Origin: Sedimentisphaerales bacterium
GTDB lineage: Bacteria; Planctomycetota; Phycisphaerae; Sedimentisphaerales; Anaerobacaceae
Reading direction: 5' to 3'
Length of the DNA stretch: 64,000 nt
Assembly (NCBI GenBank): GCA_963708075.1
Contig: OY970194.1
Coordinates: 1,824,001-1,888,000 of the forward strand
In this document: piece after piece, positions 340 to 36,704 of the stretch
Layout: every line of letters begins with the position of its first letter
Numbering within the stretch: the first letter of the stretch is position 1
Notes under the pieces: model-generated
What the model saw: only the letters and a program-made list of their open reading frames with translations
Databases searched by the model: none
What the model was told of the DNA's origin: nothing
Translations under genes and position numbers: made by a program

Positions 340-3108
340 CTACTTGTCCGCGAGCCAGGAGGGGCCGCAGGTGGTGTCCACTTTGATGGGGACGTCGAAC
401 TGGATGGCCGCGGACATGGCCTCGGAGATCCATTTGGCGTGGTCCCCGGCCTCGGCGGCGGGCAGCTCGAAGACCAGTTCATCGTGAACCTGCAGGATCA
501 TCTGTATCGGAAGGTGCTCCGCCTCGATCCGCCGGTGGATGGTGAGCATGGCAAGCTTGATCATGTCCGCGGCGGAGCCCTGGATGACGGTATTGACGGC
601 GAGACGCTCTGCCTGGGCCCGGCGGCCGGGGTTCTTGCTCTTGATGTCCAGGATTTGGCGCTTACGGCCGAGGATCGTCTCCGCGTAACCTGTTCGGCGG
701 GCCTTCGCGATGCACTCGTCGATGAACGCCCGGATCGAGCCGTAGCGGGCGAAGTATTGCTCGATAAACTGCTTCGCCTCCGCGGGGCTGATGTGGATCG
801 TGCGGGCCAGGCCCTGGGCCCCTTGCCCGTAGATGATGCCGAAATTGACGGTCTTGCACCGCGAGCGCATCTCGCTGGTCACCTTGTCCAGCGCCACATT
901 GTAGATTTGCGACGCCACGAAGCGGTGAATATCCTGATCCGCGGCAAATGCCGCCCGCATCGCTTCATCTTTCGAGAAATGGGCGAGTAGCCGCAGCTCG
1001 ATCTGGCTGTAATCGGCGCTCAGGATGCAGTCGCCCTTCTTCGCCGGCACGAAGGCGGCCCGGATCTTGCGGCCGAGCTCCGTGCGGGCGGGGATGTTCT
1101 GCAGATTCGGATTGCTGGAGGACAGCCGGCCCGTCGCCGTGATCGTCTGATTGAACGAAGCGTGCAGCCGGTGCGTCCTTGGATCGATCAGCGAAGGAAG
1201 CTTGTCCACATACGTGTTCTTCAGTTTCGCCAGCGTGCGATATTCCAGGACCATCTCCGCGATCGGATGCTGGTCTGTAAGCTGTTCGAGAATCTCTGCG
1301 TCTGTGCTGCGGCCGCCCTTGCCGAACTGCCTCGACATAAGCTTGAGCCGGTCGAACAGCACTTCCGCGAGCTGCTTGGGCGAGTCGATGTTGAAGACTG
1401 TCCCCGCCTGTTCATAGATCCGCTCGGCGACATGATTCAGCGCCTCATCCAGTTCGCCGGACATTTGCCGCAGCATGCTGGTGTCGATGGAGACGCCGTT
1501 GTATTCCATCTCCGCCAGCACCTCGACCAGCGGCATCTCGACCTCGTGGAACAGCTTGCTGAGCTGCGGCTCGCGCTCCAACTTCTCCTTGAGACACAGG
1601 TAAAGCTGGTACGTAATATCGGCATCCTCCGCCGAGTATTCGCAGGCAGCAGCCAGATCGACCAGGTCGAACGTCAACTGGTTCTTCCCCTTGCCGATCA
1701 GGGCAACGATAGGCACACATTCGTATGCCAGAAAGTCCATCGCCAGGTTGTCCATCGAATGCGACATGCGCTCGGGATCGAGGCAATAGGAGGCCACCAT
1801 CGTATCGAAATAGACGCCCCGGACGGGCATCTGGGCATTTCGCAGCACGATCAAGTCGTACTTCAGGTTCTGGCCTATCTTCTGGACGCGCTCATCGGCC
1901 AGGATCGGGGCTAATTCCCGGCGGACCGTCGCAACATCCAGATGCGACGAGCCCAGCGGGCCTTTGACGGGCACATAGAACGCCCGATGTGGCTGCCAGC
2001 ACAGACTTACTCCGACCAGCTCCGCCCGTACCGCATTGACCGAGGTCGTCTCTGTATCGACGGAAATGAGCTTCTGCTTTCGCAGCTCCGCCATCATGGC
2101 CGCCAGCTTCTCGGCCGTATCGACCAGCGTGTACTGATGCGCCGTGGTCCCTGCGGAGGCCGGTTTCATGGAGTCGCGAGGGAGCAGCGGCGGCGGAAGT
2201 GGCGGCGCCTCGACTGCCGGCGCAGGATTGCCCGGGCTCTCTGCGGGGCTTTCCTGCGGATTGAGCTTGCTCAGAAGCCGATGGAATCCGAGCTCGCTGA
2301 AGACCGCCGTGAGTTTCTCCTTGTCCGGCTCCTTCACCGCAAACGCCTCGTAGTCCATCTCCAGCGGAACCTCGCAATCGAGTGTGACGAGGCCCCGACT
2401 GACGTATGCCTGTTCCCTGGAGCTACGAAGGTTCTCGCCCCGCTTGCCTTTGATCTCGTCGATATGGGTGTAAAGGTTATCGAGGTCGCCGTAGGTGCGG
2501 ATCAGCTCCCGGGCGGTCTTCTCCCCGATCAGAGGCACGCCGGGCACGTTGTCCACGGCGTCGCCCTCCAGGGCCAGGCAATCAACGATCTGCCCCGGCG
2601 TGATCCCCATCTCCGCCTTCATCACTTGACTGTCGATCACCTTGCCCGTCTTGACATCGAACACCCGTATATGACCGTCGAGCAGTTGCAGAATGTCCTT
2701 ATCCTTCGAGCAGATGAACACCTCGACTCCGTCGGCGGCGGCCTTCCTCGCCAGCGTCCCGATGATGTCGTCCGCCTCGAAGCCGTCCATCCGCAAGACC
2801 GGGATCCGCATCGCCTCCAGGACCTGCTCGATCCGCTTGACCTGCACGGGCATATCATCCGGCATCGGCGGCCGGTGGGCCTTGTACTCCGCAAAGACGG
2901 TGCTCCGGTGCGTCGGGGCGGCACTATCCAGGGCCACGACGAGCATGTCCGGCTTCTGCTTCTCCAGGAGCCCAACCATGGCCGTCGTGAAGATATACGT
3001 CGCCTTGGTCGGCTCGCCGCTCGGGCTGGTCAGCCGCTGCTTCATCGGAGCGTAGTAAGCCGCGTAGATGTGAGCGTGGCCATCGATGATATAGAGTGTC
3101 TTCGCCAT
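340..3108 (-). CDS. polA: DNA polymerase I
   Basis: 5'-3' exonuclease (IIDGHAHIYAAYY, EADDIIGT), 3'-5' exonuclease (VDTET), PolA motifs DYSQIELR, KTVNFGIIYG and QVHDELVFE. Start set at MAKTLY. Confidence 0.98.
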   Translation of the reverse strand: MAKTLYIIDGHAHIYAAYYAPMKQRLTSPSGEPTKATYIFTTAMVGLLEKQKPDMLVVALDSAAPTHRSTVFAEYKAHRPPMPDDMPVQVKRIEQVLEAMRIPVLRMDGFEADDIIGTLARKAAADGVEVFICSKDKDILQLLDGHIRVFDVKTGKVIDSQVMKAEMGITPGQIVDCLALEGDAVDNVPGVPLIGEKTARELIRTYGDLDNLYTHIDEIKGKRGENLRSSREQAYVSRGLVTLDCEVPLEMDYEAFAVKEPDKEKLTAVFSELGFHRLLSKLNPQESPAESPGNPAPAVEAPPLPPPLLPRDSMKPASAGTTAHQYTLVDTAEKLAAMMAELRKQKLISVDTETTSVNAVRAELVGVSLCWQPHRAFYVPVKGPLGSSHLDVATVRRELAPILADERVQKIGQNLKYDLIVLRNAQMPVRGVYFDTMVASYCLDPERMSHSMDNLAMDFLAYECVPIVALIGKGKNQLTFDLVDLAAACEYSAEDADITYQLYLCLKEKLEREPQLSKLFHEVEMPLVEVLAEMEYNGVSIDTSMLRQMSGELDEALNHVAERIYEQAGTVFNIDSPKQLAEVLFDRLKLMSRQFGKGGRSTDAEILEQLTDQHPIAEMVLEYRTLAKLKNTYVDKLPSLIDPRTHRLHASFNQTITATGRLSSSNPNLQNIPARTELGRKIRAAFVPAKKGDCILSADYSQIELRLLAHFSKDEAMRAAFAADQDIHRFVASQIYNVALDKVTSEMRSRCKTVNFGIIYGQGAQGLARTIHISPAEAKQFIEQYFARYGSIRAFIDECIAKARRTGYAETILGRKRQILDIKSKNPGRRAQAERLAVNTVIQGSAADMIKLAMLTIHRRIEAEHLPIQMILQVHDELVFELPAAEAGDHAKWISEAMSAAIQFDVPIKVDTTCGPSWLADK

Positions 3109-25311: not shown

Positions 25312-28245
25312 CTACTGCCAGAGAACTACGACATAAACGCGATCCACGAACGTCGCTTTCTGGCCGTTGTTCTTGACCTGCACCTGAATGCTATTGATAC
25401 GTTCCGGCGTGCTGGCCAGACCATTCAGATCCCATGCGACAGTCCCTTTGTTGCGCTGCCCGTCGTACACGGAAGGAGTGAGGGACACCCAGGAAGACGG
25501 ACTGGCCGGCCAGCCTGTGCCCACCTTCCATTCCAGCTTGCCGGACCCGAATTGCGATTCCTCGAAGTGCCTGACGTACAGGACGACCGATGAGATCTTG
25601 GCGCCCTCCGGAATGGACACTTTCGAGAAATCGAACACCGTGAAAGCCCCTCCCGGGATCTGGCACGCCTCGTCGTCCGCAGCCTGGATCCGTTGCAGGT
25701 CGCCGGCGGAGAGCTTCTTCTGGCTGCTCTGATCGTAGCCGCCCGATACAGTCAGGATCGTCTTCTCAGGCGTACGGGGCCCCACTGTGACATCGAAGGA
25801 CTGCCTGCCTGAGGCCGGTGTCGCGCTGTTATCCACGACTTCCACCACGACGTTGTGGGTTCCCATCTGGGCCTCGGTCGGAACCCACTGGATCGACCCG
25901 CTGGCGGGATCCAGAGACATCCCCTGCGGCTTTTCGATCAAGGCGTAGGTCAGTGCATCTCCCTCATCGGGATCCGTCGCATCGACATCGTAGGTGTACT
26001 GCCGGCCCGCTACCGCGGAAGTCACCGGCTCAGAGCCGATCAGAGGCGCATCATTGGCCCGGCCGACCTGAACGGTCAGCGTGGCGCTGACGGTTCCGCC
26101 TTTGCCGTCACGGACTTCATAGGTGAACGCATCGGTGCCGTTGAAATTCGCTTTGGGGACGTATCGCAGGTTGGGCGCGGCCCCTTCCAGAGTCCCATTT
26201 GCCGGACCCTTCGTGACAACGTACGTGAGCTTATCCTTGTCCGCATCGGTCGCCGCCAGCGTGATGGCCACCGGCGCATCTTCCTGCGTCGTCATGGTCC
26301 CTTCCCCGGCCACCGGCGGTCTGTTCAGGTGAACGACCTCCATCGCCACGGCGGCGGGGCTGGAGTCTATCGTGCCGTCATTCACTTTGAACGTGAGACT
26401 GTCCGGACCGACGAAACCACTTTGAGGCGTGTAGACGAGTTTCCCATCGCTGGCAAACTGAGGGCCGGGCGCGAGCGTGCCGTGCTTCGGCTGATTGACG
26501 ATGCTGAACCTCAGCCGGTCGTCGTCAGCATCGCTGGCTTTCAACGTGATGGCCATCGACTTGCTGTCTTCCACCTGAACGGACTGGACGGTGGCGACAG
26601 GGACGTCGTTCTTGGCGGTGACCGTAATGGAAACCGTGGCCGGCTCGCTATCCACCCTGCCGTCATTGGCAATGAAGGTGAAGCTGTCGGGGCCACTGTA
26701 ATTCGCTGCGGGACGATAGACCACCTCGGGCAGGGTCCCGCTCAATTGGCCATGCGACGGATCCTGCACGACGTGGTAAGTCAGATGGTCGCGGTTCCGA
26801 TCTCTTGCCGCCAGGGTGGCCGTCAGCGGCGTGTCTTCCTGCGTGACCAGTCTGGCCGGGGTGGCGATCGGCGCTCCGTTTATCAAACCCAGGCCGGCGA
26901 TCACGCCCACCGTTACCAGGACGAGAACAACCGCCACCGTCAAACCGAGAAGGATTCGTCTGCCCTTTCCCTGCCAGCGACCCACGGGTTCAGAAGATGG
27001 CACAAGGAATCCGGCACCGCGTGCTGCCATTGTGGCCACGCGCGGCTCAGGAGCCTTCGGTCCCTCCTGATCAGATCGCGGCTGTCCGACGGGGGTAGAC
27101 GGCAAGGGAGATGCCGCATGTGAAGGAGCATTCGCCCATTGAGGCTCAACCGTCTTGCCTGTCGTTTGCTCAGCCGGTCGCTTAGCCCCGGCAAGAGATC
27201 GCTTGCGGGGTTTGGCCGGCACGCGGGCCTTTGGCAGCTTGTGACTGCGAGGTTTCGACGCCGCGGACCTTGATCGCTGCGCCGAGGCATCGCCAAGGGC
27301 CCTGCGCCTTGCGGCGGCAGGTCTCTCAGGAGCAGGAGCCTGTGAGTCTTCAAAAACATCAGGATGTACGACGTCAGGTGCAGCGGCAGCGGACAACTGG
27401 ACAGACTCCGCCTGTCCCAAGCCCAGGGCATTCCGGGCCATCGCAGCCACTTCCAGGAGCGCCTCCTCCTCCATCGGCTCTCCCTCCTGGCCGATCAATT
27501 CTTCGGCCAGTTTCCGGTACTCGGCGGCGGCGACGCAGGAAGGCGCATACGTGAGAGCCGCCTGGCCTGCCGCCAGCGACTCCGCCAAGACAACCGTACG
27601 GTGAATGACTGTCTTGAGAACCAGGTCCCCGAACAGCTCATGCATCTGCCGCCGGGTCCGCTTGCTCAACGCGCCCTTGTCCTCTACATAGGTCATCACA
27701 AGCCGAAGATTTCCCGCGCAGTAGCGATGGAACCGCTGCCGGATGATCAGGACGGTCTCGAGCAGCCGCTGCGCGCACGTCAGTGCGTAGGAATCCGCCT
27801 GGATCGGAACGATCACATCCGTGCTGGCGACCAGCGCGTTGAGCGTCAGCACGCCCAGAGAAGGCGGACAATCGATTACACATACCTCGTAATTGTCGCG
27901 TACCGTCCTGAACGCCCGCGCTATACGCAGTTCCCTGCCGGGCTTGCCGAGCAAATTCATCTCTGCCGCCGCAAGCGAGACATTGCTTGGCACCAGGTCA
28001 AGCTGCTCTATATGCGTTTGCACAACGACGGCGGACAGGGGGATCTCGGTGCTCATCAGCGGATGATATACGGTTGCAGCGGCAGCGTCCGGCTCGCCAT
28101 AGAGAGCCTGAGTCGCGCACGCCTGCGGATCAAGATCGACAAGCAGTGCCTTGTAGCCCATTTGAACCAGGGCCGCCGCGAGGTTGACGGCAGTCGTCGT
28201 CTTGCCACAGCCGCCCTTTTGGTTCGCTATTGCTATTGTTCTCAT
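25312..28245 (-). CDS. ParA/Soj-family ATPase fused to a linker, a TM helix and tandem Ig/cadherin-like domains
   Basis: NQKGGCGKTTT, DLDPQ, IDCPPSLG; TM ILLGLTVAVVLVLVTVGVIAGLGL; three P.HG.L...Y.P...F.G.D.F.F repeats plus a putative-Ig domain. Confidence 0.85.
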   Translation of the reverse strand: MRTIAIANQKGGCGKTTTAVNLAAALVQMGYKALLVDLDPQACATQALYGEPDAAAATVYHPLMSTEIPLSAVVVQTHIEQLDLVPSNVSLAAAEMNLLGKPGRELRIARAFRTVRDNYEVCVIDCPPSLGVLTLNALVASTDVIVPIQADSYALTCAQRLLETVLIIRQRFHRYCAGNLRLVMTYVEDKGALSKRTRRQMHELFGDLVLKTVIHRTVVLAESLAAGQAALTYAPSCVAAAEYRKLAEELIGQEGEPMEEEALLEVAAMARNALGLGQAESVQLSAAAAPDVVHPDVFEDSQAPAPERPAAARRRALGDASAQRSRSAASKPRSHKLPKARVPAKPRKRSLAGAKRPAEQTTGKTVEPQWANAPSHAASPLPSTPVGQPRSDQEGPKAPEPRVATMAARGAGFLVPSSEPVGRWQGKGRRILLGLTVAVVLVLVTVGVIAGLGLINGAPIATPARLVTQEDTPLTATLAARDRNRDHLTYHVVQDPSHGQLSGTLPEVVYRPAANYSGPDSFTFIANDGRVDSEPATVSITVTAKNDVPVATVQSVQVEDSKSMAITLKASDADDDRLRFSIVNQPKHGTLAPGPQFASDGKLVYTPQSGFVGPDSLTFKVNDGTIDSSPAAVAMEVVHLNRPPVAGEGTMTTQEDAPVAITLAATDADKDKLTYVVTKGPANGTLEGAAPNLRYVPKANFNGTDAFTYEVRDGKGGTVSATLTVQVGRANDAPLIGSEPVTSAVAGRQYTYDVDATDPDEGDALTYALIEKPQGMSLDPASGSIQWVPTEAQMGTHNVVVEVVDNSATPASGRQSFDVTVGPRTPEKTILTVSGGYDQSSQKKLSAGDLQRIQAADDEACQIPGGAFTVFDFSKVSIPEGAKISSVVLYVRHFEESQFGSGKLEWKVGTGWPASPSSWVSLTPSVYDGQRNKGTVAWDLNGLASTPERINSIQVQVKNNGQKATFVDRVYVVVLWQ

Positions 28246-28666
28246 TTTTTGACCGAACCAGCACCAGCAACCGACACCTGCACAGGGCGCCGATCTCTGC
28301 TTTCGGACGTTTTCAGGCCTGCCTTAACTACTTTCCGTGACATCTGCGAGAACCGGCAGGAAACCACCTGAACGCAATAATAGTACGTCCGCTTTGTCCC
28401 ATCATTGTCGATCTATCACATCGCCAGGCTTGGGGCGGGCTCTTCTGAGAGCCCATGCCGGTCAGGATGCCGGGAGTGTCTCCTCACGGATGTCCTGATC
28501 CTGGGGCTCCCTGCCCGCCGCGCATGAACCCAGCGCAAGTACCGTTTGGCAGTCCCTCCATACCTCAGGGAACCCGGCCTCCATCCGTGCCGCTTGAAGT
28601 CGTGCACACAAGATGATCGAATTCATCACCCTTGGCAGTCAATCCATGTCCACGCTTGCGAGAGTC

Positions 28667-28825
28667 TCAGCCGACCAGAGGGTTCGACCAATTGCTCACA
28701 TTCGTCTCACGGATTCTCTCTGCTACGTCACGGAGCGCCCGGATGAGCGACGGCTCAACCCTGAGCCCCTCAGCCAATGCCAATTCCTGCTCCGTGTACG
28801 GCGTATGGTTCGTTCGGGGCACCAT
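28667..28825 (-). CDS. Small hypothetical protein
   Basis: MVPRTNHTPYTEQELALAEGLRVEPSLIRALRDVAERIRETNVSNWSNPLVG with GGAGG immediately upstream; alternative starts 28834 and 28852; promoter upstream. Confidence 0.4.
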   Translation of the reverse strand: MVPRTNHTPYTEQELALAEGLRVEPSLIRALRDVAERIRETNVSNWSNPLVG

Positions 28826-28918
28826 ATCCTCCATGACATGCGCCTTTCGCATTATGGTCAGGCACGGGCGGCACCTCCTGTACCGAACGTGCTCAACCTT
28901 ATACTCAATATATGCCTT

Positions 28919-28947
28919 ACCATAGCAGATTTCCCCCCTGCTGTCAA
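28919..28947 (-). promoter_or_regulatory. Sigma70 promoter facing the small ORF and the ParA fusion
   Basis: TTGACA-17 nt-TATGGT with extended TG. Confidence 0.55.
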
Positions 28948-29123
28948 GAGCATTTCGGGACATTTCCAGGTCTTTCACCGCTCCAGAGGCCAATTTCCGG
29001 CTTGACAGGCAGGCTTGCCGGCGTTTTTACTTCATTCCCGTTTGTCACGGGTGCCGCAGGCAGGGTGTGGATCGTGTGGGATCCGCCACTCCCGGCACCC
29101 GATGAGTGGGGGGCATCTGCACG

Positions 29124-30351
29124 ATGGGCAACCCATGTGGCTATGACGTGGCCGTGGTCGGCGGCGGGATCGTCGGCCTGGCCGTCGCATACAGGATCGT
29201 CAATCGCCATCCTGGACTGCATCTGTGCGTCCTGGAGAAGGAAAGCTCGCTGGCCTCCCACCAGACGGGCCACAACTCGGGCGTCATCCATTCGGGGCTC
29301 TACTATAAACCGGGGTCGGCCAAGGCCAGGATGTGCACGCAGGGACGCCGGGAGCTGATCGAGTTTGCCCGCGACCATGGCGTGCCGTTCAGGATCTGCG
29401 GCAAGATCGTCGTGGCGACCGAGGAACGCGAGATGCCCCACATGCGCAGGATTCTCGACTACGCCCGGGCCAACGGCGTTGAGGCCATCGAGGAGATCGG
29501 CCCGGAGCGAATCCGGGAAACCGAGCCGGCCTGCCGGGGAATACGCGGGCTCCACGTGCCGGGTACCGGAATTATCGACTTCACACAGGTGGCCGGAGGC
29601 TCTCTCTCAGCTTATCGGACGGGCGGGCGGGGATAACCGGATTCTGCTGAATCACGAGGTCGTGGGCTTTCAACGTAACGGCTCGGGGGCCATCGCGGTG
29701 ACCCGCCAGGGCGAGATCAGAGCGAGACTCGTGATCAACTGTGCCGGGCTCAACTGCGACCGTGTGGCTAGACTGGATGGCGTCCATCCCGGCATCCGGA
29801 TCATCCCGTTTCGCGGTGACTACTACGACCTGGCCCCGCAGGCAGCCGAGAAGGTCCGGGCTCTGATCTACCCCGTGCCGGACCCGAGATTTCCGTTCCT
29901 CGGGATTCACTATACACGCAAGATCAGCGGCACCGTCGATTGCGGCCCCAACGCGGTCTTCGCGTTCAAGCGAGAGGGATATACGAAGACATCGTTCAGC
30001 CTGAGGGACACCGCGGCCTCATTAAGCTACCCGGGGACATGGGTCCTCTTCGCCAGGAATGCTCGCTACGGCCTGCATGAGTACGCGCGAGCGATCTCCA
30101 GGCGGCTTTTCCTGCGGACGCTGCGGCGATTCATCCCCACCATCGAGCCACAGGATATTCGCCCGGGCAAGATCGGCGTCCGTGCCCAGGCCGTCGGTCC
30201 CTGGGGCCAGACCCTCGACGACTTCAAGATCGAGATCAGCGACCACGCGATCCACGTCCTCAACGCACCCTCCCCCGCCGCCACCGCGTGCCTGGCCATC
30301 GGCGACCACGTCCGCGATCTGGCCGCCAAGCACCTGGGACTACCCTCCTGA
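29124..30351 (+). CDS. lhgO: L-2-hydroxyglutarate oxidase family flavoprotein; +1 frameshift near 29596
   Basis: GGGIVGLA, HQTGHNSGVIHSGLYYKPGS, YPVPDPRFPFLGIH, GVRAQA, NAPSPAAT; the two ORFs join if one G is removed. Confidence 0.92.
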
Positions 30352-34108: not shown

Positions 34109-35320
34109 TCATCTCGTCGCGGTTCGTGCGGCTTCCAGGGCGGCCAGGAGGGGTGGGAGTTGGATGGCGGTTTTGTAGGTCACGATGTTCTCGCCGAGGA
34201 CGGCGCCTTCACGGAGGGAGCTTTCGGGCACGGCCAGCAGGATGCTGTGCCGGCGGAACTGGCGGAGGGTCTCCCGCTTGGCGGCGAGATATTCCGGCGT
34301 CCAGAAGCCGACAATCTCCAGGAGGACCTCCGTGCCGTCCTCGTGCCGGAAGGTGAAATCCGGGATGAAGGTCTTCTGGCGATCGTAGAGGATTTGCCCT
34401 TCGCGAATCAACTGCCAGCCGTCGCGCTGGGATCCGAACTTCTTCGCAAAGGACTCCTCCAAGGCCGAGTCGAACTCCTGCGCCGCAGGCAAGTGGCTCG
34501 TGAAACCATCCTTTGCCGTGACGATCAGTTTTGCATGGGTCTTCCACGGCGTCTGCAGGATGGCCTCCATGGTCCATCCTTTGCAGGCCAGCAGGGCCGG
34601 CAGGAACTTCGCGAAATCTACGCCGTACCGCCGGGTCTCGCGCAGGACCGAGGCCGGGCCGGTGAACGTGATCCGATACATGGACGGGCCCGCTCGCACG
34701 ATCTCATGCAGCAGCCGGGCGAACTTGGCGTACCGGACGATGGTCTTGAGGTCCCCCCCTGCCGTGACCGTCACCCTCTCGGCCCGGTACAGCGCCGCCT
34801 GGAGCTGGGCCACATTGTAACGGGACAAAAAGGCACCCGGATTCGCATAGCCTGCGAATTCCTCCAACGTCTGGAAAGCCATCACGTCGGCATACAGGGC
34901 CTGCTCGATCTGCTCCCACGACGTGCCAAGCTCCTCCGCGATTCGCGTCTTCGACGCCTGCTCCTCATGCTCGAACAACCGGTCCGACTCGCGAACCAGG
35001 GGGTGAAAACGCGCGGCCCGGGAGAACACTTCGAGCCGCAGCTTCGCGGACTTGCCGGCGTGGTCGCTCTGATATGCGCTCGCATCGTCCAGGAGTTTGC
35101 AGAATGCCTGGATGCGGCGGATGGGACAGTCGGGCTCATTGGCGAACACAGCCTCGATGTCCCGGTGCAGCCAGCGGCGCTGCCGGCCGATGCCTTCGCG
35201 ATAGATGGCGAGCATCCGCTCGGCATGGTCCATGTAATGCCGATGCACGTTCTGCGTCAGGCGGTCGGGGATGGCCCGGCCCGCCCTATACTCGATTATG
35301 GCGTGTTCGCTCGTAAGCAT
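34109..35320 (-). CDS. DUF790 family nuclease (Bax1-like)
   Basis: RYNVAQLQAALY, TGPASVLRETRRYG, FDSALEESF, IPDFTF...LEIVGFWTPEYL. Confidence 0.9.
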   Translation of the reverse strand: MLTSEHAIIEYRAGRAIPDRLTQNVHRHYMDHAERMLAIYREGIGRQRRWLHRDIEAVFANEPDCPIRRIQAFCKLLDDASAYQSDHAGKSAKLRLEVFSRAARFHPLVRESDRLFEHEEQASKTRIAEELGTSWEQIEQALYADVMAFQTLEEFAGYANPGAFLSRYNVAQLQAALYRAERVTVTAGGDLKTIVRYAKFARLLHEIVRAGPSMYRITFTGPASVLRETRRYGVDFAKFLPALLACKGWTMEAILQTPWKTHAKLIVTAKDGFTSHLPAAQEFDSALEESFAKKFGSQRDGWQLIREGQILYDRQKTFIPDFTFRHEDGTEVLLEIVGFWTPEYLAAKRETLRQFRRHSILLAVPESSLREGAVLGENIVTYKTAIQLPPLLAALEAARTATR

Positions 35321-36704
35321 CGGTCCGTCGCCTCTTTCGTGATCGCTCGACCTCCTTCGTATCCTCGCAGACAACCTCGTAGAGCGTGGCCCGGATGCTG
35401 CCGGACCTTCGCAAGACCCGGCCGAGCCGCTGCGTGGCCTGGCGCGTCGAGCCCTGCCCGCCGATCACCACGGCTACCTTCGCCTCGGGCACGTCCACCC
35501 CTTCATCGAGCACGCGGTTGGCCACGAGCACCGTGATCTGCCCTTTCGCAAACGCGTCCAGCATAGCCAGCCGCTCGCGCTTACGCGTGTGAGACAGAAT
35601 TGTCGGCACGAGGAATCGCTTGGAGACCTCGATGGCCATCGCGTTCGAGCCGGCGAAGATGAGGATTTGCTGACCGTTGTGGAGGCGGAAGATATCCTCC
35701 AACACCCGCAGCTTCTCGGCGGCGCGGTTCTCGATGGCCTGCTTGAGGTAGTACGCCTTTTGTGCATGGCGGGCGCGGGGGTCCTTGCCCGATTCCTTGC
35801 ACAGGTCCCGCCAGGAGTAGCCTGGCACTTCCTTGCGCCGGGACGCGAGGAAGTGGCGGACCACGCGGCCGCACTCGTCATAGCTCGCCTGCTCCCGGTC
35901 CGTCAGCGCGACGGGGATTCGCACCACGTCGAAGTCGGCAAGCGTCGAGCCCTTTGCCTCCTTGAACGCCATGCGATAGACAACGGGGCCGATGAGCCAG
36001 TCGAGGTCCGCGTGCAGGTCGTCGCTGCGCTCGGGCGTGGCCGTCAGCCCCAGGCGCATCACAGCCGTGCTGAGAATCGCCGCCTCGCGACGGCACTTGC
36101 CCGGCAGGTGGTGCTCCTCGTCGAAGACCAGCAGACCGAAGCCCGCCCCCATCTTGTCCATGTGAATATAAGCGCTGTCGTACGTGGTCACCGTGACCGG
36201 CTTGATGTCGAAGAGGTTGTCGCCGACAATCCCTGCGTCGTAGCCGAACGCCGCCAGGATGCGGCGATGCCACTGGTACATCAAGTCTCGCACGGGCGCG
36301 ACGACCAGGGTCGCCACCTTTATCTCGGCCATCATCGCAAGGGCCACTTCGGTCTTCCCGGTTCCCGTCGGCATGATGACCTGCCCGCGCCGGCCGCCGC
36401 GCAGCCAGGCCGCCAAAGCCTCCCGTTGTTCCGGCCGCAACGTCGGCAAGTCCGTTTTCGGCCAGCAGACGCGCTCCGGCTGCAACACACCGTCGTGAAA
36501 CCGCGATGCGAAACACCGGCTCAGGATCGTGCGAACCGCCGCATAGTGGATTGCGTCGCATCGCCACGCCCCCACTCGCGGGTCCCACATCCAGATCGAT
36601 GAGCCCGGCTCGGCCGGCAACTGCCCGCGATCGACACCCATCAATAGCAGCGTGCCCCGATTGAACGACAGCGATATTTGATTCGGTAGTTTGCCATCCA
36701 TCAT
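35286..36704 (-). CDS. SF2 DEAD/DEAH helicase, XPB/Rad25-like
   Basis: MPTGTGKT, FDEEHH, GLTATPER, VLDEGVDVP, QRLGRVLR; overlaps the DUF790 gene. Confidence 0.92.
   Translation of the reverse strand: MMDGKLPNQISLSFNRGTLLLMGVDRGQLPAEPGSSIWMWDPRVGAWRCDAIHYAAVRTILSRCFASRFHDGVLQPERVCWPKTDLPTLRPEQREALAAWLRGGRRGQVIMPTGTGKTEVALAMMAEIKVATLVVAPVRDLMYQWHRRILAAFGYDAGIVGDNLFDIKPVTVTTYDSAYIHMDKMGAGFGLLVFDEEHHLPGKCRREAAILSTAVMRLGLTATPERSDDLHADLDWLIGPVVYRMAFKEAKGSTLADFDVVRIPVALTDREQASYDECGRVVRHFLASRRKEVPGYSWRDLCKESGKDPRARHAQKAYYLKQAIENRAAEKLRVLEDIFRLHNGQQILIFAGSNAMAIEVSKRFLVPTILSHTRKRERLAMLDAFAKGQITVLVANRVLDEGVDVPEAKVAVVIGGQGSTRQATQRLGRVLRRSGSIRATLYEVVCEDTKEVERSRKRRRTDAYERTRHNRV

Follow-up and report, generated by a model that had tools for sequence, protein, structure and literature searches.

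A ParA-type ATPase fused to a membrane-anchored cadherin-like stalk in sediment planctomycetes, and its kinship with pilus-operon ParAs

The architecture studied here, an intracellular ParA domain followed by one transmembrane (TM) helix, tandem cadherin domains and a C-terminal beta-sandwich in Phycisphaerae, has already been catalogued in print as ConB3, a match that we make by text description. The 2026 preprint concerned (Li, Burroughs, Aravind) gives it one paragraph, in section 28, where it is proposed, from its architecture and its likeness to PCTM and TIR-ParA receptors, to be a 'standalone' immune receptor of Phycisphaerae; the words 'pili', 'pilus', 'secretin' and 'type IV' are absent from the main text. 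PCTM/receptor-like TIR-ParA proteins (ConB2) have the type II plan of the fusion: a single TM helix, with ParA in the cytoplasm and a variable domain outside. In ConB2, Arg replaces the Walker A Lys, PG follows sensor-1 and an effector gene lies upstream, whereas our fusion keeps K10 and K15, has DPQAC instead of PG and has no effector gene among the neighbours scanned.

The closest solved structures are those of chromosomal ParA/Soj proteins (1WCV/2BEK; 8RAY, PMC12462528; E 1e-40), which share with the fusion the deviant Walker A, the DxD motif and Walker B, and with its relatives a short, basic, amphipathic N-terminal partner peptide. Unlike them, the fusion is membrane-tethered, has lost the DNA-binding Arg and has no parB or parS nearby. 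TadZ/CpaE of Tad pili and BcsQ (PMC11407121) are likewise ParA/MinD ATPases encoded with an envelope machine that they are thought to place, but they are MinD-like and soluble or peripheral, whereas the lineage of the fusion is Soj-like, accompanies PilMNO-type genes and has a TM helix and an Ig stalk attached to it. MinD/TadZ-type proteins have a C-terminal amphipathic membrane helix and a Ser before Walker A (PriB2); the fusion has instead a true TM helix after a long linker, and an Asn in that position. Finally, ExeA of Aeromonas (PMC4098917) spans the membrane once, with its ATPase in the cytoplasm and a domain that binds peptidoglycan in the periplasm, and is required together with ExeB for secretin assembly. 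Common to both systems are a single-TM ATPase with a periplasmic glycan-binding domain (predicted in our case) and a bitopic partner adjoining the secretin; ExeA is an AAA ATPase and the fusion a SIMIBI ParA with cadherin repeats, and the comparison serves as a working analogy only.

The window, that is, the whole stretch of 64,000 nucleotides analysed, comes from a Sedimentisphaerales bacterium, lies at 1.82-1.89 Mb and contains the following features:

25312..28245, minus strand: whole fusion gene, ParA-linker-TM-(Big_9)x3-He_PIG-cap, 977 aa, placed in the short-form subgroup (support 100/100)
27490..28245, minus strand: ParA/Soj-type ATPase domain, residues 1-252 (Pfam and alignment)
27427..27486, minus strand: predicted helix behind the ParA domain, residues 254-273 (AlphaFold2 model)
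26956..27489, minus strand: cytoplasmic linker of 178 aa, rich in Pro, Ala and basic residues, predicted disordered
26881..26955, minus strand: single predicted TM helix, residues 431-455 (hydropathy and AlphaFold2)
26056..26880, minus strand: three tandem Big_9/cadherin-like repeats, residues 456-730 (Pfam and AlphaFold2)
25783..26046, minus strand: He_PIG (putative Ig) domain, residues 734-821 (Pfam)
25312..25770, minus strand: C-terminal cap, an unnamed jelly-roll domain of CBM-like predicted fold (CBM96/7VBO, 8WAB)
28667..28834, minus strand: small gene of 55 aa, 421 bp upstream of the fusion, conserved and short-form-specific
28919..28947, minus strand: sigma-70-like promoter, TTGACA-17-TATGGT with TG extension, the TTGACA invariant in 9 aligned loci
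28246..28666, minus strand: conserved intergenic region between small gene and fusion, with no Rfam match at E<=1

An earlier note, made from the letters alone, had read here a single uninterrupted ORF with a ParA domain, a linker of about 180 aa, a TM helix preceded by RR at 26881-26955, three Ig-like repeats, a putative Ig domain and a beta-sandwich, and the analysis confirms this reading. The ORF has no internal stops. Pfam places AAA_31 at residues 1-172 (E 1e-52), Big_9 in four stretches and He_PIG at 734-821. The sole hydrophobic segment (best 19-residue window 431-449, Kyte-Doolittle 3.0) has RR just before it, and AlphaFold2 models a helix at 430-452. The full-length AlphaFold2 model is weak (mean 60.4, pTM 0.30), its ParA and cap domains being unusable and residues 254-430 of low confidence, and the block pLDDT of the three Ig repeats and He_PIG is mostly 74-92. 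Each of the Big_9 repeats contains a DxDxD-type motif through which it may bind Ca2+. The basic residues N-terminal of the TM helix point to a type II topology, judged from hydropathy and charge, and the periplasm is the likeliest location of the cap because no part of the fusion crosses the outer membrane. Thus, of the two alternatives in the note, an adhesin is not borne out, and an envelope tether, a type II membrane protein coupling a cytoplasmic ParA switch to an outside Ig stalk, is supported.

The fusion is a genuine, conserved protein of sediment planctomycetes. We found 346 homologues at E<=1e-10, and among the best 120 the Walker A motif is present in 117, a TM window with KD>=2.2 in 119, and K/R are richer before the TM than after it in all 120; the conserved Walker A and TM rule out the artefactual fusion against which the note had warned. 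Those with names belong to Sedimentisphaerales/Planctomycetota, in agreement with the Phycisphaerae origin of ConB3. In public sequencing runs, the ParA-linker and the linker-TM-Ig junctions are each covered by separate short contigs; none spans the complete gene, and read-level support is weak. One run, X1, is possibly the source sample itself. One RNA run gave a single near-identical contig of 230 bases, uninformative on expression. Counts at residue level refer to 99 long-form and 18 short-form fusions, and the window's protein belongs to a derived short subgroup of the family. Locus L082, a 200-bp filler, was left out of the counts. The linker is the least conserved part (median identity 30% among 15 relatives), and within the short group the ParA domain is the best conserved (median 75% vs 63-67%).

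The soluble sister ParAs are found in pilM-pilN-pilO-parA-partner-secretin operons at 41 of 50 genome loci, picked from the best matches, and are pil-linked at 57 of 66 metagenome loci. Their partner, which has a weak T2SSC match, bears the N-terminal peptide GL[HQ]Kx[IV]SxIF, and a profile of this peptide scores at least 21.8 in 41/41 pilus partners, 35 of which served as its training set. The small gene downstream of the long-form fusions, which stood outside that training, bears the same peptide at 20/20 loci (scores 26-44); its 97-aa product gave no useful Pfam match. Furthermore, peptide and ParA were lost together, since the partners in six out of six pil operons without parA, five of them from one genus, are peptide-less (scores <= -8.4), and a split form, represented by one protein (P0128), has the peptide (41.3), a coiled coil, a TM helix, Big_9 and the cap but no ParA. 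Of 117 fusions, 86 carry a degenerate in-cis copy of the peptide at residue 254, with p<=0.05 vs shuffles in 83; it is undetectable in the window's protein (p 0.56), and the peptide partner is absent from the window's genome, where the best profile score is 15.3.

Phylogenetic analysis clustered fused and orphan ParAs with 7 pilus ParAs at 99/99, and the grouping reached an SH-aLRT of 96 in a further tree. AU tests, based like the 99/99 tree on a random subset of 40 rows, reject neither a tree in which the pilus ParAs form one clade and the fusions its sister (p 0.37) nor one in which all fusions form a single clade (p 0.19). The fusion ParA is nested in, or sister to, the pilus-operon ParAs of Sedimentisphaerales, and the fused gene itself lies outside pil operons at 20/20 genome loci and in the window. 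A literature search, which was not exhaustive and also missed the ConB3 preprint, found no ParA inside a planctomycete pilMNO-secretin operon. The earlier note saw the architecture but overlooked its ConB3 listing, the pilus lineage with its peptide partner and the conserved 55-aa upstream gene.

A complex prediction suggests that the 97-aa protein of the long forms binds the dimer of ParA via its peptide. For one long-form relative (L005), the complex of ParA dimer, ATP/Mg and its own peptide scored 0.73, against 0.01 for the best of 3 controls, the runs agreeing in at least 78% of contacts with a partner pLDDT of at least 63. Of 157 solved pairs 116 clear the mark used, and of 215 mismatched pairs 2 do, counts only roughly valid here, and a prediction made for L005, not for the window's protein, might echo solved ParA/MinD-partner complexes. 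The predicted interface covers ParA residues 152-170, 191-208 and 218-234 and includes 0 of 10 mapped ParB-pocket residues. This site is altered in the window's protein; changes of the short group as a whole are not significantly enriched in it (5/15 vs 17/102, p 0.15), and those of the soluble orphan ParAs are (p 0.008).

The window's ParA keeps K10, K15, T16, D37, D39, D125 and E222; the deviant Walker A and Walker B had been noted as intact before. K10, K15, D37, D39 and D125 are conserved in at least 116 of 117 fusions. The signature of the ParA clade (PriB1-type) is present, NQKGGCGKTT with Asn first and D37-L-D39-P-Q41; Walker B reads E120...D125, its first Asp being Glu here and Asp in 102/117. 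Compared to long forms and pilus ParAs, the window's protein carries H43C, Y152S, E156T, G157C, L158A, P224L and S225A, and across the short group 22 otherwise conserved positions are altered, including H43C, G157C and P224L.

The cap has no Pfam or PDB match by sequence, and we predict from its modelled fold a sugar-binding, CBM-like domain. Its fold matches are moderate (Z 10.3-10.7, 8-10% identity), and its top VIA match is PAPP-A. The predicted jelly roll is shared with CBM96/DNRLRE (7VBO, PMC9971899; Z 10.3) and the chondroitin-binding CBM (8WAB; Z 9.9, Foldseek E 5e-5), at 5-9% identity; the window's cap has 0 matches to Pfam CBM96, and 1 of 30 relatives has one (E 9e-4). Elsewhere the domain is carried by secreted proteases, phosphatases and a sulfatase, and a search of genome contigs gave one distant homologue only.

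Our tentative reading, to which we give a little less than an even chance, is that the fusion is an ATP-dependent dimerisation switch, built on a pilus-lineage ParA, that clusters a cadherin stalk with predicted sugar binding and anchors it in the envelope. This is more likely than an immune receptor because most of its nearest relatives without the fusion are encoded in type IV pilus operons, and in this best reading the fusion acts neither as a nucleoid ratchet nor as a division protein nor as a phage sensor. A bolder version is rather unlikely: a repurposed pilus-positioning ParA would dock a glycan-binding stalk of 3-23 repeats on pilus/secretin machines by the shared peptide, at a site like that of MinE and not like that of ParB, with small soluble proteins (the 97-aa carrier, or in the window's subgroup the 55-aa protein) tuning release.

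That the fusion is a standalone anti-phage receptor, as section 28 of the preprint proposes from architecture and likeness to PCTM and TIR-ParA receptors, we consider unlikely. A CBM-like cap, a Big_9 repeat number that varies across the family from 1-3 up to 23 and a patchy distribution in the window's genus (cap in 1/15 by the tool's tally) would suit a receptor, but in genus g8 the cap is present in 14/14 genomes, and long forms are syntenic with the housekeeping genes pfk, RNase Y, glyoxalase and secretin. ConB3 is described as 'standalone', which the lack of an effector gene would suit, but long forms have the peptide-partner gene downstream and short forms the 55-aa gene upstream; the preprint's main text is silent on pili and secretin. 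No defence-island context and no effector gene appeared among the neighbours scanned: 34 proteins, comprising the fusion and selected neighbours at the window's locus and at 13 others, were run through PADLOC, which returned generic helicase, TPR, HD and methyltransferase domain matches only, and none for the fusion. In nine pairs, dN/dS was 0.11-0.28 for the cap and 0.07-0.25 for the neighbours, and 0.12-0.40 for the Ig part (8 of 9 computable); one near-identical pair gave noisy values (0.72 for ParA, 0.85 for the small gene). These pairs show no sign that the cap is under diversifying selection, and the low values of cap and Ig therefore speak against a fast-evolving sensor. In contrast to the immune proposal, the fused ParA derives from or is sister to pilus-operon ParAs, lacks defence context among the neighbours scanned and evolves under purifying selection.

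An ExeA-like assembly factor, a bitopic ATPase whose cap grips peptidoglycan or another periplasmic glycan and which aids secretin assembly or retention, is in our view decidedly unlikely. Besides the domain plan that ExeA presents and the weak T2SSC match of the ancestral partner, it would fit the 14 of 18 long-form genome loci that have a same-strand GspD-type secretin gene upstream. However, secretin and fusion are kept apart by pfk, by a glyoxalase gene transcribed divergently, or by both, no secretin was found near the fusion at 16 short-form loci, of which several are on short contigs, ExeA is not a ParA, and the fusion has no peptidoglycan-binding Pfam domain.

Very unlikely is a strong form of the self-positioning idea of the earlier note, in which an adhesin or nucleoid-to-envelope tether would exploit a gradient of ParA along DNA and might serve the division of a cell without FtsZ. 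The host does appear to be the FtsZ-less planctomycete that the note had supposed, with no tubulin/FtsZ match in a 92.8%-complete genome, and the core is Soj-like with its signature Lys. The note had also read K and V at the positions matching the DNA-binding R189 and R218 of B. subtilis Soj. They are K190 and V219, which our alignment equates with R182 and R211 of T. thermophilus Soj, and V219 aligns with R238 of M. xanthus ParA (with a numbering offset deduced from the D60A mutation in 8RAY), where the R238E change abolishes DNA binding (PMC12462528). Position 219 is R/K in 43/44 pilus-operon ParAs but in 0/99 long-form and 1/18 short-form fusions, being S/T/A in 99/99 long forms. The fused ParAs have lost this nucleoid-binding Arg, so a nucleoid ratchet seems unlikely and self-positioning is weakened. 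In the short group, K190, K195 and R216 stay basic and the median net charge of residues 186-250 is 0 (-5 in long forms), and with K190 and R216 some DNA binding may be left; however, a ParA bound to its own cargo would presumably be incapable of a free gradient. No link with cell division was found, and the cap, present in 63/251 genomes of the family and in 0/287 sampled genomes of the class's other families, has a narrower distribution than a core division gene should have. The absence of a nearby parB stands as the note had it: ParB_N matches lie at 5.09, 6.10 and 7.10 Mb, and a separate ParA, ParB and parS (a perfect site at 5,089,564) sit together at 5.07-5.09 Mb, ~3.2 Mb off. It is highly improbable that in the short subgroup ParA is a catalytically weak scaffold in a membrane-anchored Ig/CBM protein, like the ParA-less TM-Big_9-cap paralogues (~470 aa) that share genomes with long forms, as the 22 changed positions might suggest, since 17-18 of 18 members retain Walker A, D37/D39 and Walker B, ParA is the group's best conserved part, and Cys at position 43 also occurs in the mycobacterial ParA-like structure 4PFS.

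Returning to the ATP-switched envelope anchor, its possible origin would concern the family in three steps and the window's copy in a fourth. The ancestral soluble ParA would bind the nucleoid and, on a bitopic PilP/GspC-like partner, the N-terminal GL[HQ]Kx[IV]SxIF peptide, thereby positioning the pilus machine. A duplicate parA would then have been joined to a TM-Big_9-cap gene, the trimmed partner remaining adjacent as a 97-aa soluble peptide carrier. Once tethered, ParA would have lost nucleoid binding and ATP would now pair two stalks, while docking or resetting of the dimer is the likely role of the peptide; this may happen at pilus/secretin sites, given that in long-form genomes the pilus partner still bears the peptide. 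In the subgroup of the window's protein the site for the peptide has changed and the peptide has gone from the genome, and the window's copy is therefore likely uncoupled from pili. Here the 55-aa upstream protein, encoded at 12 of 15 other short-form loci and with no useful Pfam or usable ESM Atlas match, is a candidate regulator of the fusion that may act instead.

The family has its intermediates still visible, from pilus-operon ParA with peptide partner through peptide-TM-Ig-cap and long fusions with a trimmed partner to short fusions without it. It allows a direct test between anti-phage receptor and envelope-organising switch in a class so far only catalogued, for which the ParA domain, the 55-aa protein, the 20-residue peptide and the unnamed CBM-like cap would be the reagents. 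ParA/MinD ATPases usually place their cargo in trans, on DNA or membrane, whereas here the ATPase is fixed to its own membrane cargo. If the bolder version given above is true, an FtsZ-less bacterium would here use a ParA system independent of the nucleoid to sort its envelope proteins by means of a peptide code.

The fusion gene of the window is open throughout, as the earlier note had claimed for its uninterrupted 977-aa ORF, and its product, a real and odd protein, has one prominent hydrophobic segment (residues 431-449, KD 3.0) preceded by RR, which agrees with the single TM helix proposed there. The two genes of interest are:

25312-28245, - strand: ParA fusion (977 aa); Pfam domains AAA_31 (1-172), Big_9 (four stretches) and He_PIG (734-821)
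421 bp upstream of the fusion: gene for a 55-aa protein, behind a conserved sigma-70-like promoter

The alignment places K190 and V219 at T. thermophilus Soj R182 and R211, bearing out the K and V read by eye at the DNA-binding positions, whose B. subtilis equivalents we take to be R189 and R218. The 7.5-Mb genome, a single contig at 92.8% completeness, contains a further five ParA-like genes. Its ParB, with a perfect parS, lies at about 5.09 Mb, a long way from the window. No tubulin/FtsZ match was found in this 92.8% complete sequence. The genome also carries 14 ORFs matching the secretin profile and two dnaA copies. Elsewhere in the window, a FAD-dependent oxidoreductase gene (29106-30351, + strand) is broken across two frames; a 99%-identical metagenome contig (L105:41-1384) reads in a single frame, so the break is either recent or due to misassembly. 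An SF2 helicase beside a 421-aa ORF (34109-36704, - strand) gave partial, probably generic PADLOC matches (PbeA and others).

A protein search returned 346 homologues at E<=1e-10. Among the best 120, Walker A is present in 117 (the other three begin within the ParA domain), a TM window of KD>=2.2 in 119 and a second TM in none, and all 120 have a K/R excess on the pre-TM versus the post-TM side. The artefactual fusion that the earlier note gave as a refuting case is rejected, as the fusion is kept across homologues; public contigs bridge the junctions piecewise, and no contig spans the gene. The few named homologues are from Sedimentisphaerales or Planctomycetota. The cap, the C-terminal jelly-roll domain, occurs in 63 of the 251 genomes of the window's family, the complete fusion being confirmed in 22 of these, and was not found in any of the 287 genomes sampled from the class's other families; an automated tally gave 14/14 genomes for genus g8 and 1/15 for the window's own genus. 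Two subgroups are fully supported in the tree: long forms (99/117), with a median of 1155 aa, and short forms (18, the window's copy among them), with a median of 977 aa. Big_9 repeats vary from 1-3 up to 23. Giant fusions have coiled-coil-like cytoplasmic linkers (L029:3842-10396, with its TM at residue 1158; P0037, P0057, P0012) or up to 23 Big_9 repeats (L030).

A ParA match at E<=1e-30 is present in each of the 201 genomes sampled from the order, and many contain a closer class (43-58% identity), mostly short and soluble. We took 50 loci of this class from the 150 matches listed, picked to cover families: 41 lie in pilM-pilN-pilO-parA-partner-secretin operons (Pfam PilM_2, T2SSM_b, Secretin, T2SSF, N_methyl) and nine are orphans from two genera. 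A pil-linked soluble ParA was also present in 57 of 66 further metagenome loci. In a 40-row tree, fused and orphan ParAs group together (92/86) within a 99/99 clade to which seven pilus ParAs also belong; a sister position (p 0.37) is not rejected by the AU test, and nor is a single fused clade (p 0.19). The operon is conserved across the order (L034-L039, L042-L071, L078-L080, L083-L084 and many of L111-L176) and was not found in the published papers searched. Some operons have tandem parA copies (L034, L117, L118, L121, L035, L036, L120, L122, L127), four of them with a hybrid gene joining the partner peptide to a PilO-like protein, and three pilus ParAs have an unannotated C-terminal extension of ~190-210 aa (L037:6207-7598, L038:2529-3863, L039:6237-7571). 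The window's genome also has three orphan soluble ParAs of the same lineage (C1:929761, 1120120, 3095539), ~50% identical to the fused domain and with no partner gene; they may have separated from a fused ancestor.

The gene following parA encodes a bitopic, PilP/GspC-like partner with the N-terminus MAKxKxGL[HQ]Kx[IV]SxIFxG, found in 35 of 41 pilus partners by strict pattern and in 41/41 by profile. In pil operons lacking parA, the window's genome included, the partner lacks this peptide (6/6), representing one or two loss events because five of the six belong to one genus. The window's genome has a rearranged operon (L085, C1:7161438-7166088), with pilMNO on one strand facing a shortened partner and secretin on the other, and no parA between the halves. 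A 97-aa soluble protein with the peptide lies downstream of the long form in 20/20 loci examined, and a degenerate copy directly follows the fused ParA domain (best score at residue 254 in 86/117 fusions; p<=0.05 in 83). One database protein, P0128, is a split form consisting of peptide, coiled coil, TM, Big_9 and cap. In three loci (L126:6782-7147, L155:6752-7105, L166:3011-3247), a small ORF carrying the peptide comes directly after a soluble ParA, away from pilO.

For the long-form locus L005, ESMFold2 docked the peptide onto the fused ParA encoded there, modelled as an ATP-bound dimer, and scored the complex at 0.73 (best of three controls, 0.01), with at least 78% of contacts shared among runs and partner pLDDT of at least 63. 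The score mark was reached by 116/157 solved and 2/215 mismatched pairs, counts that apply only roughly here. This model supports peptide binding to the long-form dimer. Of the ten M. xanthus ParB-pocket residues mapped via 8RAY (PMC12462528), not one falls within the predicted site (152-170, 191-208, 218-234). The site occupies the dimer's C-terminal side, as MinE does on MinD in that paper, and we infer that it is MinE-like.

In short forms, 22 positions that are conserved elsewhere have changed. They include Y152, E156, L158 and S225 in the predicted site, with no significant enrichment there (p 0.15); even so, ParA is the best-conserved part of these proteins. The peptide is absent from 16/16 short-form loci (seven with at least 1 kb downstream) and from the window's genome. 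The 55-aa gene occurs in 12 of the 15 other short-form loci (two have too little upstream DNA and some are near-copies) and in none of the other collected loci. Its profile matched strongly, among 251 family genomes, only the three with the closest caps, on a separate contig in one of them, and weakly and partially two more. Two unannotated proteins of 272 and 324 aa (L180:838-1656, L181:727-1701) resemble its first helix pair in their N-terminal part.

AlphaFold2 folds the cap as a jelly roll (pLDDT 89.7) matching PAPP-A (Z 10.7), 7VBO (Z 10.3, rmsd 2.9, 132 aligned), an alginate-binding CBM96 (PMC9971899), and chondroitin-binding 8WAB (Z 9.9; Foldseek E 5e-5); sugar binding is predicted. Cap domains make up a small, mobile family with 229 representatives (E<=1e-3), and the 34 carriers scanned include six S8 proteases, three metallophosphatases, a sulfatase and two CBM96 proteins. 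TM-Big_9-cap proteins without ParA occur in genomes with long forms. The architecture is already catalogued: in their preprint, Li, Burroughs and Aravind (bioRxiv 10.64898/2026.10.19.760177) list it in Phycisphaerae among the 'standalone receptor-like proteins' of ConB3 and propose that carbohydrate changes caused by infection are sensed in a calcium-dependent way, in a section without experiment. A term search of the main text gave no 'pilus', 'pili', 'secretin', 'type IV' or 'T2SS'. To this catalogue entry the present analysis adds a pilus origin for the fused ParA, the partner genes, the split form and evidence that speaks against a simple immune interpretation. An immune receptor is unlikely, and PADLOC on 34 proteins gave only generic domain matches. 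Outside the window, a ParA with a C-terminal domain resembling CBM48/AMPK1_CBM by eye (C1:5056474-5058030) fits the preprint's ConB5 description.

Long forms are syntenic, with an upstream GspD-type secretin in 14/18 loci, pfk and/or a divergent glyoxalase in between, and RNase Y or a zincin downstream; an ExeA-like helper of the secretin (compare PMC4098917) is slightly less probable still than an immune receptor. Position 219 is R/K in 43/44 pilus ParAs, S/T/A in 99/99 long forms and R in 1/18 short forms, and is the counterpart of M. xanthus R238, where a Glu substitution abolishes non-specific DNA binding (PMC12462528); a nucleoid ratchet or division tether is improbable. The catalytic residues are retained, and the slimmest chance is left to an inert scaffold. 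In nine pairs of long forms, dN/dS ranges over 0.05-0.25 in ParA (0.72 in one near-identical pair), 0.12-0.40 in the Ig repeats and 0.11-0.28 in the cap, against 0.07-0.25 in neighbour genes.

The reading that we favour, at a little under even chances, is that ATP would drive dimerisation of the membrane-tethered ParA (for the general ParA/MinD cycle and the comparison with TadZ/BcsQ, see PMC11407121), and that this would cluster and anchor the stalk, for which glycan binding is predicted. The stalk would probably lie in the periplasm, small partner proteins would exert control, and the nucleoid would play no part.
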